The position numbers and the translations under genes are program-made. A DNA stretch of 64,000 nt from a phage: the sequence record PZ452583.1. One strand, 5' to 3'. Below the pieces are notes generated by a model. That model ran no database searches. It was not told where the DNA came from and was given only the letters and a program-made list of their open reading frames with translations. The first letter of the stretch is position 1. The number at the start of each line of letters is the position of its first letter. Below are positions 4,279-47,033 of the stretch, one piece after another.

Positions 4279-4517
4279 TGGAAGGTTTAATTGAAGCTAT
4301 TAAATCAAACGACCTCGTAGCCGCTCGTAAATTATTTGCTGAAGCCATGGCTGCAAGAACGACTGATTTAATTAAAGAAGAAAAAATCGCTATCGCTCGT
4401 AATTTCTTAATCGAAGGTGAAGAACCTGATGACGAGGATGATGACGAAGACGAAGATAGTGATGATAAAGACGACAAAAAAGACAAAGACTCTGACGAAG
4501 ACGAGGATGATGAATAA
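4278..4517 (+). CDS. 67: prohead core protein gp67
   Basis: 79-aa ORF with poly-acidic DE-rich C-terminus, start overlaps gene 20 stop; position and composition match T4 gp67. Confidence 0.85.
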
Positions 4518-8004: not shown

Positions 8005-8019
8005 TCTTTGACGATTTAA

Positions 8020-8050
8020 GGGACCTTCGGGTCCCTTTAGTTGTTTTTAT
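8020..8050 (+). terminator. rho-independent terminator after gene 23
   Basis: GGGACC-TTCG-GGTCCC then TTTAGTTGTTTTTAT. Confidence 0.75.
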
Positions 8051-8087: not shown

Positions 8088-9371
8088 ATGGCTAAAATCA
8101 ACGAACTTCTGCGCGAATCAACCACAACGAATAGCAACTCAATCGGTCGCCCAAATCTCGTTGCTTTGACTCGCGCTACCACTAAATTAATATATTCTGA
8201 CATTGTAGCAACGCAAAGAACTAATCAACCTGTTGCTGCTTTTTATGGTATCAAATACCTTAACCCAGACAATGAATTTACATTTAAAACTGGTGCTACT
8301 TATGCTGGCGAAGCTGGATATGTAGACCGAGAACAAATCACAGAATTAACAGAAGAGTCTAAATTAACTCTCAATAAAGGCGATTTATTCAAATATAATA
8401 ATATCGTTTATAAAGTATTAGAAGATACACCATTTGCTGATATTGAAGAAAGTGATTTAGAATTAGCTCTTCAGATTGCAATTGTTCTTTTAAAGGTTCG
8501 TCTATTTTCTGACGCAGCGTCAACAAGCAAATTTGAAAGCTCTGATAGTGAAATTGCGGATGCTAGATTCCAGATTAATAAATGGCAAACCGCAGTTAAA
8601 TCTCGTAAACTTAAAACTGGCATCACAGTTGAATTAGCACAAGATTTAGAAGCAAATGGATTCGATGCTCCTAATTTCTTGGAAGATTTGCTTGCAACTG
8701 AAATGGCAGATGAAATCAATAAAGATATTCTGCAGTCTTTGATTACAGTATCAAAACGTTATAAAGTTACAGGAATTACTGACACTGGATTCATTGATTT
8801 GAGTTATGCATCTGCACCTGAAGCTGGTCGTTCATTATACCGAATGGTATGTGAAATGGTTTCGCATATCCAAAAAGAATCAACTTATACAGCAACGTTT
8901 TGTGTTGCTTCAGCTCGTGCCGCTGCGATTCTTGCTGCATCAGGTTGGTTAAAACATAAACCAGAAGATGATAAATATCTTTCACAAAATGCCTATGGGT
9001 TCTTAGCTAATGGTTTACCGCTTTATTGCGATACTAACAGCCCATTAGATTATGTAATCGTTGGCGTAGTAGAAAATATCGGTGAAAAAGAAATTGTTGG
9101 ATCAATTTTCTATGCTCCGTATACAGAAGGTCTCGACTTAGATGACCCTGAACATGTAGGTGCATTTAAAGTTGTTGTTGATCCAGAAAGCTTGCAACCG
9201 TCTATCGGTTTATTAGTTAGATATGCTTTATCTGCAAATCCTTACACCGTAGCAAAAGATGAAAAAGAAGCAAGAGTAATTGATGGTGGAGACATGGATA
9301 AAATGGCGGGTCGTTCAGATTTGTCTGTTTTATTAGGTGTTAAGCTACCAAAAATTATCATTGATGAATAA
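8088..9371 (+). CDS. 24: capsid vertex protein gp24
   Basis: 427-aa ORF, gp23 paralog in T4 position; late promoter 8053-8060. Confidence 0.95.
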   Translation: MAKINELLRESTTTNSNSIGRPNLVALTRATTKLIYSDIVATQRTNQPVAAFYGIKYLNPDNEFTFKTGATYAGEAGYVDREQITELTEESKLTLNKGDLFKYNNIVYKVLEDTPFADIEESDLELALQIAIVLLKVRLFSDAASTSKFESSDSEIADARFQINKWQTAVKSRKLKTGITVELAQDLEANGFDAPNFLEDLLATEMADEINKDILQSLITVSKRYKVTGITDTGFIDLSYASAPEAGRSLYRMVCEMVSHIQKESTYTATFCVASARAAAILAASGWLKHKPEDDKYLSQNAYGFLANGLPLYCDTNSPLDYVIVGVVENIGEKEIVGSIFYAPYTEGLDLDDPEHVGAFKVVVDPESLQPSIGLLVRYALSANPYTVAKDEKEARVIDGGDMDKMAGRSDLSVLLGVKLPKIIIDE

Positions 9372-9377
9372 AACAAA

Positions 9378-9402
9378 GGGACCTTTCGGTCCCTTTTTAT
9401 TT
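9378..9402. terminator. bidirectional terminator between gene 24 and rnlB
   Basis: GGGACC-TTTC-GGTCCC flanked by T-runs on both strands. Confidence 0.7.
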
Positions 9403-19056: not shown

Positions 19057-20825
19057 AAAAGCCACAAGAAATGCAAACGATGCGTAGAAAAGTTATTTCA
19101 GATAATAAACCAACACAGGAAGCGGCTAAATCCGCTTCTAATACTTTATCTGGTCTTAATGACATTTCTACAAAATTAGATGATGCTCAAGCTGCCTCTG
19201 AATTAATAGCTCAGACTGTTGAAGAAAAATCAAATGAAATAGTTGGAGCAATTGATAACGTTGAAAGCGCAGTAAGTGATACTACTGCCGGTTCTGAGTT
19301 AATTGCTGAAACTGTTGAAATTGGAAACAATATTAATAAAGAAATCGGTGAATCGCTCGGAAGCAAATTAGATAAATTAACAAGTTTACTGGAACAAAAA
19401 ATTCAGACAGCTGGAATTCAGCAAACTGGAACGAGTTTAGCAGTAGTCGAAAATGCTATTCCTGTTAAAGTCGTCGAGGATGATACAGCTGAATCTGTGG
19501 GTCCTTTATTACCGGCTCCTGAAGCAGTTAATAATGATCCTGATGCTGATTTTTTCCCTACTCCTCAGCCAATTGAACCAAAACAAGAGTCTCCAGAAGA
19601 GAAGCAAAAAAGAGACGCATTTAACTTAAAAATATCTAATGCATTAGATAAATTAACAAAGACAGTTGATTTCGGATTTAAGAAATCTATTTCAATTACT
19701 GATAAAATATCTAGCATGCTATTTAAGTATACCGTCAGTGCTGCTATTGAAGCTGCTAAAATGGTTGCATTGATAATGGCTGTTGTTATTGGAATAGACC
19801 TGCTGATGGTTCATTTTAAATACTGGTCAGATAAATTTTCAAAAGCCTGGGATTTATTTAGCACTGATTTTAAAACTTTCTCAAGCGAAACAGGAACTTG
19901 GGGTCCTTTATTACAAAGCATCTTTGAATCTATTGATGAAATTAAAAAGTTCTGGGAAGCTGGAGATTGGGGCGGATTAACAGTAGCTATTGTTGAAGGG
20001 CTTGGAAGTGTTCTTTATAATTTAGGAGAGCTTATTCAATTAGGTATGGCTAAATTATCTGCAGCAATTCTTCGAGTCATTCCTGGCATGAAGGATACTG
20101 CTGATGAAGTAGAAGGAAGAGCATTAGAAAATTTCCAAAATTCTACTGGAGCATCTCTTAATAAAGAAGACCAAGAAAAAGTAGCAAATTATCAAGATAA
20201 ACGAATGAATGATGATCTTGGCCCAATAGCAAAAGGATTAGACAAAATTGCGAACTGGAAAACTCGTGCATCTAACTGGATTCGTGGTGTAGATAATAAA
20301 GAAGCATTGACTACTGACGAAGAACGTGCAGCAGAAGAAGAAAAATTAAAACAGCTTTCACCGGAAGAAAGAAAAAATGCTTTAATGAAAGCTAATGAAG
20401 CTCGTGCTGCGATGATTCGTTTTGAAAAATACGCTGATTCAGCTGATATGAGCAAAGACTCGACAGTTAAATCAATTGAAGCTGCTCATGAAGACCTTAA
20501 AAAACGAATGAATGATCCGGATTTAAATAATTCACCAGCAGTTAAAAAAGAACTTGCTTCTAGATTTGCTAAAATTGATGCCACTTATCAAGAGCTCAAG
20601 AAAAATCAACCTGAAGCAAAACCTGAAACTTCTGCTAAATCACCAGAAGCAAAACAGGTCCAGGTGATTGAAAAGAACAAAGCACAACAAGCTCCTGTTC
20701 AACAAGCATCTCCTTCAATCAATAATACTAATAATGTTATTAAGAAAAATACTGTCGTTCATAATATGACACCTGTCACAAGCACAACTGCTCCTGGTGT
20801 ATTTGGTGCGACGGGAGTTAATTAA
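19053..20825 (+). CDS. 29: tail tape measure / baseplate hub protein gp29
   Basis: 590-aa ORF, T4 gp29 length and character. Confidence 0.92.
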   Translation: MKKPQEMQTMRRKVISDNKPTQEAAKSASNTLSGLNDISTKLDDAQAASELIAQTVEEKSNEIVGAIDNVESAVSDTTAGSELIAETVEIGNNINKEIGESLGSKLDKLTSLLEQKIQTAGIQQTGTSLAVVENAIPVKVVEDDTAESVGPLLPAPEAVNNDPDADFFPTPQPIEPKQESPEEKQKRDAFNLKISNALDKLTKTVDFGFKKSISITDKISSMLFKYTVSAAIEAAKMVALIMAVVIGIDLLMVHFKYWSDKFSKAWDLFSTDFKTFSSETGTWGPLLQSIFESIDEIKKFWEAGDWGGLTVAIVEGLGSVLYNLGELIQLGMAKLSAAILRVIPGMKDTADEVEGRALENFQNSTGASLNKEDQEKVANYQDKRMNDDLGPIAKGLDKIANWKTRASNWIRGVDNKEALTTDEERAAEEEKLKQLSPEERKNALMKANEARAAMIRFEKYADSADMSKDSTVKSIEAAHEDLKKRMNDPDLNNSPAVKKELASRFAKIDATYQELKKNQPEAKPETSAKSPEAKQVQVIEKNKAQQAPVQQASPSINNTNNVIKKNTVVHNMTPVTSTTAPGVFGATGVN

Positions 20826-22893: not shown

Positions 22894-22897
22894 CAAT

Positions 22898-22927
22898 GGG
22901 GACCTTTCGGTCCCCATATTTTTATTT
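22898..22927. terminator. bidirectional terminator after gene 54
   Basis: GGGGACC-TTTC-GGTCCCC then ATATTTTTATTT. Confidence 0.7.
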
Positions 22928-23219: not shown

Positions 23220-23273
23220 TCCTCATGTTATGTCAGTAAGACTACTATAACACAACACGAGGGACTTGTAAAC
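23220..23273 (-). repeat. 54-bp early promoter cassette, copy A
   Basis: 53 of 54 nt identical to 38546-38599. Confidence 0.8.
23244..23272 (-). promoter_or_regulatory. early promoter (TTTACA-17-TATAGT) within 54-bp repeat copy A
   Basis: T4 early-type GTTTAC -35 and TATAGT -10, followed by SD GAGGAA. Confidence 0.6.
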
Positions 23274-27458: not shown

Positions 27459-27463
27459 AAATT

Positions 27464-27480
27464 AAAGGCCCGAAGGCCTT
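27464..27480 (-). terminator. hairpin upstream of the alt late promoter
   Basis: AAAGGCC-CGAA-GGCCTTT. Confidence 0.45.
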
Positions 27481-27668
27481 TAATAATCTATTGGTAATAG
27501 AGTACGATATATTTCAAACTTTGGACCTTTTTCATAAGCATCAAAAGTTTCTGTGAATTTATTATAAGCATATGCATCTATAAATTCAATCATGATTTGC
27601 GATACAGAAGTAGAAACATCTCCACCTTCTTTTTGAGCCACGACAATTGTTTCTAAGTAAGCTTTCAT
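27480..27668 (-). CDS. hypothetical protein
   Basis: 62-aa ORF coupled to gene 30 stop. Confidence 0.5.
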   Translation of the reverse strand: MKAYLETIVVAQKEGGDVSTSVSQIMIEFIDAYAYNKFTETFDAYEKGPKFEIYRTLLPIDY

Positions 27669-31409: not shown

Positions 31410-31775
31410 TTAAATATCAAATTCGTTAAGAACTACATCAAAGATTGCTTCAAGATGCTCAGGTTTAGCTCTGTTACTCAGAATATGACGAATCCAAGTT
31501 TTAACCAAAAGCTTGCGATTAACGCCATTCCAGCAAGGATGAGTCCCTAAATCGCGTTCACGGAAATCATCATCCAGAGCGATTTTAAAGTTGGAACCTT
31601 CCATCGTGATTGAAACCGTGATGCCATTTTCAAATCGCATATAAACGTAGTTAGGAGTCATATACTGTTCAATTTCGCATACTGATCCATTTTGATGTTT
31701 CCAGAGGCAAATAGTATCAATAGAACCTGCAATACCATTAGAAACATATTTACGTTCAAAGTTAATGTAGTTCAT
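31410..31775 (-). CDS. hypothetical protein
   Basis: ORF track 31410-31838; ATG at 31775 with SD GGAG lies downstream of the early promoter, giving a 121-aa product. Confidence 0.55.
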   Translation of the reverse strand: MNYINFERKYVSNGIAGSIDTICLWKHQNGSVCEIEQYMTPNYVYMRFENGITVSITMEGSNFKIALDDDFRERDLGTHPCWNGVNRKLLVKTWIRHILSNRAKPEHLEAIFDVVLNEFDI

Positions 31776-31816
31776 TTTATTCTCCAGGTGTTTAAGTTGT
31801 TTGTTGGTACAGGTAT

Positions 31817-31844
31817 ATAATATCATATCCTGTACCAAAGTAAA
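31817..31844 (-). promoter_or_regulatory. early promoter (GTTTAC...TATTAT) with -10 inside an inverted repeat
   Basis: minus strand TTTACT-16-TATTAT; flanked by GGTACAGG / CCTGTACC. Confidence 0.5.
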
Positions 31845-31849
31845 CTATT

Positions 31850-32218
31850 TTATGCAACTTTAATCCAATTATCTAAATTTAATTCACCTTTGGCTTTCAT
31901 TTTTTCAATCAAGAGGTCAGCGGTAATACGACCATTTTGATACCACGTGACATCTTCAGAGTAACCAGTTTCTTTATCTTCATAAGTCTCACAGCGAATT
32001 TTACCAAGAATCAAAGTTTTTAATTCGTATGTATCTCCAGTAAAAAAGTTAGTTAACATTATTTTCCAAGAGAAATCATCAGAAGGACCTTCAGGAGTCA
32101 TACAATCTACAAATTCAAATTGTTCTTTATATAAATGCCACTGAAGTTCTTTAGTTTCGATAGCTTTATAGCCGTCGTGATCTTTACCTTTGATGTATGA
32201 GTTAAGATTGATTTTCAT
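31850..32218 (-). CDS. hypothetical protein
   Basis: 122-aa ORF with SD AAGGAG and early promoter upstream. Confidence 0.55.
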   Translation of the reverse strand: MKINLNSYIKGKDHDGYKAIETKELQWHLYKEQFEFVDCMTPEGPSDDFSWKIMLTNFFTGDTYELKTLILGKIRCETYEDKETGYSEDVTWYQNGRITADLLIEKMKAKGELNLDNWIKVA

Positions 32219-32245
32219 TTTATTCTCCTTTGTTTGTGTAAGATA

Positions 32246-32274
32246 ATACTATCACAAAGGAACCATACTGTAAA
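32246..32274 (-). promoter_or_regulatory. early promoter (TTTACA-17-TAGTAT)
   Basis: minus strand; flanked by inverted repeat CCTTTGT / ACAAAGG; SD AAGGAG downstream. Confidence 0.45.
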
Positions 32275-32289
32275 CAACTTTGTGCAATC

Positions 32290-32323
32290 TTTGGAAAATA
32301 AAAAAGGACTCCCGAAGGAGTCC
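32290..32323 (-). terminator. rho-independent terminator after the small basic ORF
   Basis: GGACTCC-TTCG-GGAGTCC then TTTTTTATTTT on minus strand. Confidence 0.65.
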
Positions 32324-32328
32324 TCAAC

Positions 32329-32505
32329 TTATGCTTTCTGCTTACCAAAACGAGAAGCATCATCTCGAAGAACCGCACGTGCTCGGCGCATGATCTTCTC
32401 AACAGTTTGATTGATACGAGAGTTCGACCCGCGCTTGTAACCAGCGCGTTTAGAATCACCAACTTTCTTTTCAACTGCTTTCTTTGCTTTAGCTTGTTTT
32501 GCCAT
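32329..32505 (-). CDS. small basic protein (30.9 position)
   Basis: 58 aa from the internal ATG (MAKQAKAKK..., Lys/Arg-rich); alternative start at 32547; terminator downstream. Confidence 0.45.
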   Translation of the reverse strand: MAKQAKAKKAVEKKVGDSKRAGYKRGSNSRINQTVEKIMRRARAVLRDDASRFGKQKA

Positions 32506-35234: not shown

Positions 35235-35263
35235 TTTGTTTTCCTCATTTGTTTGGTAGAGCT

Positions 35264-35292
35264 ATAATATCACAACTCTACCATAAAGTAAA
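35264..35292 (-). promoter_or_regulatory. early promoter (TTTACT-17-TATTAT) with -10 inside an inverted repeat
   Basis: flanked by GGTAGAG / CTCTACC. Confidence 0.5.
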
Positions 35293-35295
35293 CTA

Positions 35296-38545: not shown

Positions 38546-38599
38546 TCCTCATGTTATGTTAGTAAGACTACTATAACACAACACGAGGGACTTGTAAAC
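38546..38599 (-). repeat. 54-bp early promoter cassette, copy B
   Basis: 53 of 54 nt identical to 23220-23273. Confidence 0.8.
38570..38598 (-). promoter_or_regulatory. early promoter within 54-bp repeat copy B (upstream of alc)
   Basis: identical promoter sequence to copy A. Confidence 0.6.
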
Positions 38600-46975: not shown

Positions 46976-47033
46976 TTTATTCTCCTCAAGTTGATAAGGC
47001 TATAGTATCATTACCATAGCCTGATGTAAACAT

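Follow-up and report, generated by a model that had tools for sequence, protein, structure and literature searches.

An early promoter with a built-in stem-loop between genes 30.8 and 30.7 of a T4-like phage, probably of the published PeSL type

Site 1, an intergenic element of a T4-like phage, is very probably a PeSL-type composite, i.e., a strong sigma-70 early promoter with a built-in stem-loop that belongs to a published class. The PeSL account as a whole, including the mechanism proposed for it, is held to be reasonably probable. The analysis covered a stretch of 64,000 nt from sequence record PZ452583.1 (termed the window, positions are those of the window), and site 1 occupies positions 31804-31845 on the minus strand. 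The phage belongs to the genus Tequatrovirus. The 2 kb around site 1 span genes 30.4 to rIII, whose T4 counterparts are all encoded on the minus strand, and this region shares 99.7% identity with phage LZ1 and about 97% with many T-even phages.

Genes 30.8 and 30.7 are co-oriented, and site 1 is located in the 74 nt that separate the TAA of the former (31852-31850) from the ATG of the latter. The minus strand reads AAAATA GTTTAC TT TGGTACAGG ATATGATATTATATA CCTGTACCA ACAAAC...GGAG...ATG, and the features are listed in Table 1. The promoter matches the T4 early-promoter pattern, and an identical core of 40 nt is present at the same location in T4. The original prediction of a minus-strand GTTTAC-type promoter with a TATTAT element was confirmed, with a 17-nt spacer and a TG. 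The perfect 8-bp inverted repeat that it had also described was found to be longer. The 8-bp arms are present (GGTACAGG, 31806-31813, and CCTGTACC, 31829-31836), but the perfect repeat comprises 10 bp with 15 nt between the arms, and 15 pairs can form in RNA. Likewise, the arms do bracket the -10 element, as had been proposed, but the -10 does not lie in a simple loop; as RNA or as single-stranded DNA, the stem runs into the TGn/-10 region. The RNA fold has a free energy of -17.7 kcal/mol (z -5.6), which was equalled by none of 200 shuffles. Both strands also fold as single-stranded DNA, with -10.2 and -9.8 kcal/mol and z values of about -5.

Judged from the sequence, transcription would start at about 31808-31811, 6-9 nt past the -10 element. 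On the minus strand of T4, this predicted start corresponds to about 129,881-129,885, inside the 3' arm at 129,886-129,879. A modelled transcript starting at 31810 had no structure (0 kcal/mol). The hairpin starts 11 nt past the stop codon of 30.8, and its 3' arm ends 18 nt ahead of the GGAG; the folded read-through RNA leaves the Shine-Dalgarno (SD) motif unpaired. A U-tract is absent after the stem, where the 3' flank is CAACAAACAACUUAAAC, and the terminator scan made no call at this position. A comparison of the whole window with Rfam covariance models gave no match at the gathering score; a single match below the threshold (32290-32373) was judged to be due to chance.

Table 1. Coordinates of site 1, of related elements in the window and of neighboring features, and stems of gene 30.7 promoters
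Feature	Positions	Strand	Description
-35 GTTTAC, candidate early promoter of gene 30.7	31845-31840	-	Preceded by AT-rich stretch and 30.8 TAA; identical in T4
Extended -10 (TG, one base, TATTAT)	TG 31825-31824; TATTAT 31822-31817	-	17-nt spacer after GTTTAC
5' arm, sense strand (TTGGTACAGG)	31829..31838	-	Inside promoter spacer, upstream of predicted start site
3' arm (CCTGTACCAA)	31804..31813	-	Spans discriminator and predicted start site
Whole hairpin	31804..31838	-	15 pairs, one bulge, 4-nt AUAU loop
Leader	31773..31803	-	Unstructured, A/C-rich; GGAG 31785-31782, 30.7 ATG 31775-31773
Site 2, cd.3/cd.2 intergenic	35254..35293	-	GTTTAC 35293-35288, N18, TATTAT 35269-35264
Site 3, 30.9/30.8 intergenic	32226..32275	-	GTTTAC 32275-32270, TAGTAT 32251-32246
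Intrinsic terminator	32304..32325	-	C(UUCG)G hairpin, then U-tract; just upstream of 30.8 promoter
54-bp repeat, copy 1	23220..23273	-	Early promoter; spacer pairs with GAGGA Shine-Dalgarno, 15 pairs including G-U
54-bp repeat, copy 2	38546..38599	-	98% identical to copy 1; same architecture
Further member	46997..47031	-	GTTTAC, N18, TACTAT; 7-bp stem AGGCTAT/ATAGCCT overlapping -10; shuffle p = 0.02
Gene 30.8 allele	31850..32218	-	39% protein identity to T4 gp30.8
Tequatrovirus stem			GGTACAGG / CCTGTACC
Winklervirus stem			GGTGAGAGTC / GACTCTCACC
Marfavirus stem			TTGGTGTAGGAGTA / TACTCTTACACCAA
L054 stem			GCTGATTGAGTGT / ACACTCAATCAGC

The PeSL (promoter-early stem-loop) was described in the phages RB49 and phi1 as an intergenic AT-rich stretch with an early promoter, a stem-loop and an SD motif (Arbiol 2010, PMC2839356). 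The stems mostly lie between the promoter boxes or overlap the -10, G-T pairs are marked, and the elements showed promoter and terminator-like activity in reporter constructs, recombination between copies and formation of mini-circles. The class was later extended to the phage pairs T4/PST and KVP40/nt-1, with TTTACW-N17-TAYWAT as the promoter, and a figure legend places the T4/PST stems just upstream of the promoter (Comeau 2014, PMC4122927).

The same parts are found at site 1. The element extends from the stop codon of 30.8 to the start codon of 30.7 and contains an AT-rich stretch, a sigma-70 early promoter that is a candidate by sequence (TTTACT, 16 nt, TATTAT, with TGn and AAAATA upstream), a stable stem-loop, and GGAG and ATG at its 3' end. 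The stem occupies one of the five positions allowed for PeSLs; it encloses the -10, and overlap with the -10 is one of the two commonest positions in the published descriptions. G-T pairs occur in the stems as well, the window contains at least six members, and dispersed copies lie beside swapped or deleted open reading frames (the swap of 30.8 and the deletion at locus L048 versus L047, see below). Differences from the published elements concern the sequence, the position and the spacing. The RB49 and phi1 stems are polyG/polyC, whereas the stems in the window are of mixed sequence; according to the legend, the T4/PST stem directly precedes the promoter, but the stem of site 1 brackets the -10; and the spacer of site 1, counted from TTTACW, is 16 nt instead of the published N17. 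The element itself is already known as a class, and, measured against the accessible parts of these papers, the compensation across genera, the sense bias and the split into a short and a long form are added here. A recurring oddity of T4-type intergenic regions is tied to a named published element, and annotators can label it accordingly. The quantitative additions, i.e., enrichment, cross-genus compensation and sense-strand bias, make the effect of PeSLs on read-through RNA directly testable in T4, which has been studied better than any other phage. A review from 2010 on prereplicative transcription in T4 is silent on inverted repeats at early promoters. A literature search for maps of the 5' and 3' transcript ends of T4 found none; a T4 dRNA-seq preprint is represented by GSE255091.

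Features of site 1 are also shared with other known systems. Hairpins that sequester the ribosome-binding site and contain an internal promoter occur at the T4 genes e, soc, 49 and I-TevI. There, a late or middle promoter lies between the arms, and the long upstream transcript folds, while the short transcript does not. The elements in the window likewise have the promoter between the arms, and their long-form members mask the SD motif in the same way, but their promoters are early, and the SD motif of site 1 lies outside the stem. Pairing of the 3' arm with the SD motif or the start codon is lacking at site 1, but site 3, the 54-bp repeats and the Karamvirus orthologues have it. Site 1 resembles intrinsic terminators, among them the T4 hairpins of the C(UUCG)G type, in that its sense RNA can form a stable hairpin between two genes, shortly past a stop codon; in contrast to them, it has no U-tract, and its stem overlaps a promoter. 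A canonical intrinsic terminator was rejected for site 1 because no U-tract follows the stem. REP-type mRNA stabilizers are intercistronic 3'-protective hairpins. Site 1 resembles them in having a stable stem without a U-tract between co-transcribed genes, which could block 3' exonucleases after downstream cleavage, but a common sequence family is lacking, and 3' protection is a proposal for site 1.

The architecture of site 1 was predicted to recur at 35255-35282 and 32227-32260, and both copies were found, at 35254-35283 and 32226-32261. The former, site 2, corresponds to the T4 early promoter Pe133295, which is named in the T4 GenBank record; its stem (TGGTAGAG/CTCTACCA) has 13 RNA pairs and a free energy of -17.2 kcal/mol (z -5.6). 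The fold of site 3 is weaker (-12.1 kcal/mol, z -2.5), and the 3' arm of its stem (TCCTTTGT/ACAAAGGA) overlaps the AAGGAG SD motif. The 54-bp repeats, for which an imperfect version had been proposed, also have the architecture, but together with site 3 they represent a separate sub-type, whose 3' arm consists of the SD motif. Two forms can be distinguished on the predicted pairing. In the short form, to which sites 1 and 2 belong, the SD motif is free, and this form is also predicted for the gene 30.7 promoters of Winklervirus, Marfavirus and the loci L049 and L054. The long form has the SD motif as its 3' arm and is represented by site 3, the 54-bp repeats, many T4 promoters (T4 positions 8218, 62797, 53943 and 166807) and the gene 30.7 promoter of Karamvirus and Gelderlandvirus; in these two genera, GGAG pairs with a CTCC that immediately follows the -35.

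Because the 5' arm of site 1 precedes the predicted start site, only read-through RNA from 30.8 can fold the full hairpin. RNA initiated at the site 1 promoter would lack the 5' arm and have an open leader, while read-through RNA from 30.8 would fold the complete hairpin, which would thus mark or punctuate read-through transcripts only. A structure in read-through transcripts had been considered in the original prediction; it is supported, and the geometry limits the hairpin to this RNA. In the short form, with its free SD motif, the hairpin would most likely attenuate read-through or, once the leader has been cleaved, shield the upstream cistron as a 3' barrier. That site 1 has such an attenuator or 3'-protector role is a tentative assignment. 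The role of the short form is the weakest link of the account and is deduced from the position of the stem, the reporter result with RB49 and a few stem-less cases with a terminator; the reporter evidence for termination stems from the G/C-rich RB49 stems, not from the site 1 stem (Arbiol 2010, PMC2839356). In the long form, in which the SD motif is the 3' arm, read-through RNA would be masked from ribosomes and from RegB; GGAG is protected from RegB by secondary structure. We speculate that the placement of a 5' arm in the spacer might be a rule of design that is general among the early transcription units of T-even phages and is under selection. Promoter-proximal and read-through copies would be treated differently, the read-through copy would be punctuated by the short form or made inaccessible to ribosomes and RegB by the long form, and the form would switch between genera at one orthologous promoter. 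If true, this rule would go further than the published picture, in which PeSLs mediate shuffling as terminator-plus-promoter cassettes.

Alternatively, the hairpin could chiefly be a translational mask or coupling device, which would restrict translation of the downstream gene to promoter-proximal RNA. Site 3, the 54-bp repeats and many T4 promoters are built in this way, as are the gene 30.7 promoters of Karamvirus and Gelderlandvirus with their CTCC-GGAG pairing. The arrangement resembles the T4 late-gene cases e, soc, 49 and I-TevI, and secondary structure also shields GGAG from RegB. However, the SD motif is unpaired at site 1, where the 3' arm falls 18 nt short of the GGAG, and it is also free at site 2, in Winklervirus, in Marfavirus and at L049/L054. 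Masking as the chief function is unlikely.

A second alternative is that the inverted repeat acts on DNA, as a cruciform or a single-strand hairpin that modulates the opening or the early shut-off of the promoter, or else the cleavage and recombination carried out by structure-specific enzymes. Both DNA strands of site 1 are able to fold, the shut-off of early promoters is described as incompletely understood, and in RB49 a crossover was mapped inside the loop of a stem-loop (Arbiol 2010, PMC2839356). In addition, the T4 GenBank record notes that 14 nt between the arms of site 2 were once reported as the inverted complement. The two strands were compared at early promoter candidates, which were collected from the early regions of T4 and the window by a search for GTTTAC-N16-19-TAnnnT with a ribosome-binding site behind it. 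This T4-specific motif was used because a generic sigma-70 scan was uninformative (36 sites versus 43 expected). For the 43 T4 candidates, the fold was -12.5 kcal/mol for the sense RNA and -9.6 kcal/mol for the antisense RNA. The gap between the strands was 0.5 kcal/mol in shuffled controls, and an excess of 2.4 kcal/mol remained (p = 1.5e-4). In the 17 strongest hairpins, G-U pairs accounted for 35/259 pairs in the sense strand and for 7/227 in the antisense strand (p = 0.001), and single stem changes led to sense-strand G-U pairs, for example at the loci L005, L038, L049 and L019. Some of the sense G-U pairs result from the promoter consensus (TGTGR with UAYWAU) and may be a by-product, so that the bias is suggestive, but short of conclusive. 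It points to the sense RNA or the non-template strand and away from a symmetric cruciform, from which better pairing of one strand throughout would not be expected. Action on DNA is also at odds with the identity of the 3' arm with the SD motif, an RNA-level signal, in many members, and with the presence of the stem at only about half of the early promoters. Altogether, an effect at the DNA level is improbable, whereas an action of the structure in the sense RNA is considered rather probable.

The 14 nt of site 2 that were earlier recorded as inverted (T4 133300-133313, locus L001 11301-11314, window 35264-35277) are exactly the segment between the arms, and therefore, the earlier T4 version is either a hairpin artefact or a real flip. 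The inverted version would have destroyed the -10.

The original prediction had also suggested that the hairpin could act on DNA, in recombination or regulation. One part of this suggestion held, namely the location at recombination junctions, while a cruciform is disfavored by the strand asymmetry. The gene 30.8 DNA of the window is only 25-70% identical to that of T4, while the identity is about 100% for gene 30.7 and 97-100% for the neighboring genes. The promoter/hairpin elements on both sides of 30.8 are 95-100% identical to T4, and the break points coincide with both of them. On this identity pattern, the 30.8 difference is to be read as a cassette swap with the flanking elements as junctions. 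At L048, a direct fusion joins gene 30.7 to the first promoter of the cluster, and about 1 kb is deleted relative to L047. The missing DNA lies between two paralogous early promoters in L047 (L047 1-1200 versus L048 1014-1200). Furthermore, L015 is a mosaic of the upstream flank of one type and the loop and downstream flank of another, with the crossover inside the core. The swap, the deletion and the mosaic together identify the conserved core as a crossover site, and the core of about 40-50 bp would thus have a second role in cassette exchange. Cores that serve as junctions for the exchange of gene cassettes are relevant to the understanding and the engineering of T4-like therapeutic phages. 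The two paralogous promoters of L047 have a common 3' half, GGTTACTATAGAC[C/T]TGTACCACCCAAAC, which differs by one base; the complementary 5' arm is present only in the promoter without an upstream terminator.

A third alternative is that the repeat arose by chance or as a by-product of promoter duplication and is functionless, and that its conservation is merely that of the promoter. Repeats of 8-10 bp are indeed common in this AT-rich genome. The window contains 63 perfect inverted repeats of at least 8 bp, compared with 32.8 +/- 4.7 in dinucleotide shuffles, and 7 of at least 10 bp, compared with 2.5 expected. A 10-bp inverted repeat by itself is unremarkable; what is improbable is its position around the -10. 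For every early promoter candidate, the longest stem with the 5' arm in the spacer and the 3' arm downstream of the -10 was scored, and the scores were compared with shuffles of the promoter's own spacer and leader and with 4000 random T4 positions of the same geometry. None of 200 shuffles of the site 1 promoter reached a 10-bp stem in this geometry. Fourteen of the 43 T4 candidates (16 when G-U pairs were counted) and six of the eight candidates in the window had p <= 0.05 against their own shuffles. Watson-Crick stems of at least 7 bp enclose the -10 in 17/43 T4 candidates, but at only 4.8% of the random positions (p = 5e-12), and stems of at least 10 bp occur in 5/43 candidates versus 0.03% of the random positions (p = 9e-13); some T4 promoters are paralogues, and these counts are therefore partly non-independent. 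The systematic scan around GTTTAC promoters that had been suggested as a check thus revealed enrichment of inverted repeats over background. The predicted family of promoter-stem-loop elements was borne out by its strong enrichment at early promoters in T4 and in the window, although its name, PeSL, had not been given. About half of the T4 early promoters have no stem, which shows that the stem is dispensable for promoter function. Among the T4 candidates, stems were found in 1/6 promoters with an upstream intrinsic terminator and in 17/37 of the others, a difference that was not significant (p = 0.26). The paralogous T4 early promoters at 20612 and 57990 (L055 and L056) have stems of 14-15 bp (CTGACAAGACTAT... 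and GTTGACAAGATTAT...) that differ by compensated changes.

The stem hardly varies within Tequatrovirus, which would fit a functionless repeat and makes covariation invisible in this genus. Therefore, the regions upstream of gene 30.7 were compared at 52 loci from several lineages of the Tevenvirinae (among them Tequatrovirus, Winklervirus, Marfavirus, Karamvirus and Gelderlandvirus), which yielded 22 distinct sequences. A MAFFT alignment set the arms out of register because the stem and loop lengths differ, and each distinct sequence was folded and compared with shuffles instead. Nineteen of the 22 sequences fold with z values of -3.2 to -8.5. For 18 of these 19, none of 300 shuffles per sequence folded as well, and the fraction was 0.003 for L041. 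The promoter boxes are conserved among the lineages, whereas the stems are unrelated (GGTACAGG, GGTGAGAGTC, GGTGTAGGAGTA and GCTGATTGAGTGT; Table 1). Karamvirus, Gelderlandvirus and their relatives have an 11-bp stem with CTCC/GGAG pairing, and within this group, CTCCGTTGTAT/ATACAACGGAG is replaced by CTCCGAGGTTT/AAACCTCGGAG in L051 through a run of compensated changes. The three exceptions are L005, which has a loop change and a G-U pair, and L046 and L048, in which an intrinsic terminator is located directly upstream of the promoter. The retention of the hairpin with unrelated stem sequences in other genera indicates that the stem is under selection, and the folds clearly suggest that it is maintained by compensatory change across genera. 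A functionless repeat is rejected as very improbable, given the enrichment over shuffles and random positions and the compensatory changes; in addition, the stem positions are not part of the promoter consensus. Even less credible is a repeat that serves as the operator of a dimeric repressor with sequence specificity for early promoters. This reading was rejected, although the palindrome is centered on the -10, a classical operator position, and early-promoter shut-off is unexplained, because the stems have no half-site in common, the arm sequences vary by promoter and genus, which leaves no common recognition sequence, and G-U pairs count towards conservation.

Further repeats were noted in the window. 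Closely similar G+C-rich tetraloop hairpins are located at 8018-8037, 9375-9396, 22896-22917, 27461-27484 and 32305-32324 (GGGACC-TTCG/TTTC-GGTCCC and GGACTCC-CGAA-GGAGTCC), and they are of the stable C(UUCG)G type that is typical of T4 terminators. Between 23380 and 27430, several families of direct repeats (70-94% identity) recur at a constant interval of about 2094 bp and look like a tandem duplication of a gene of about 2 kb, probably alt, of which T4 has a single full copy there. At 4419-4513, an imperfect repeat of GAYGAR codons is present in four copies of about 32 nt, which, if translated, would encode an acidic stretch rich in Asp and Glu.
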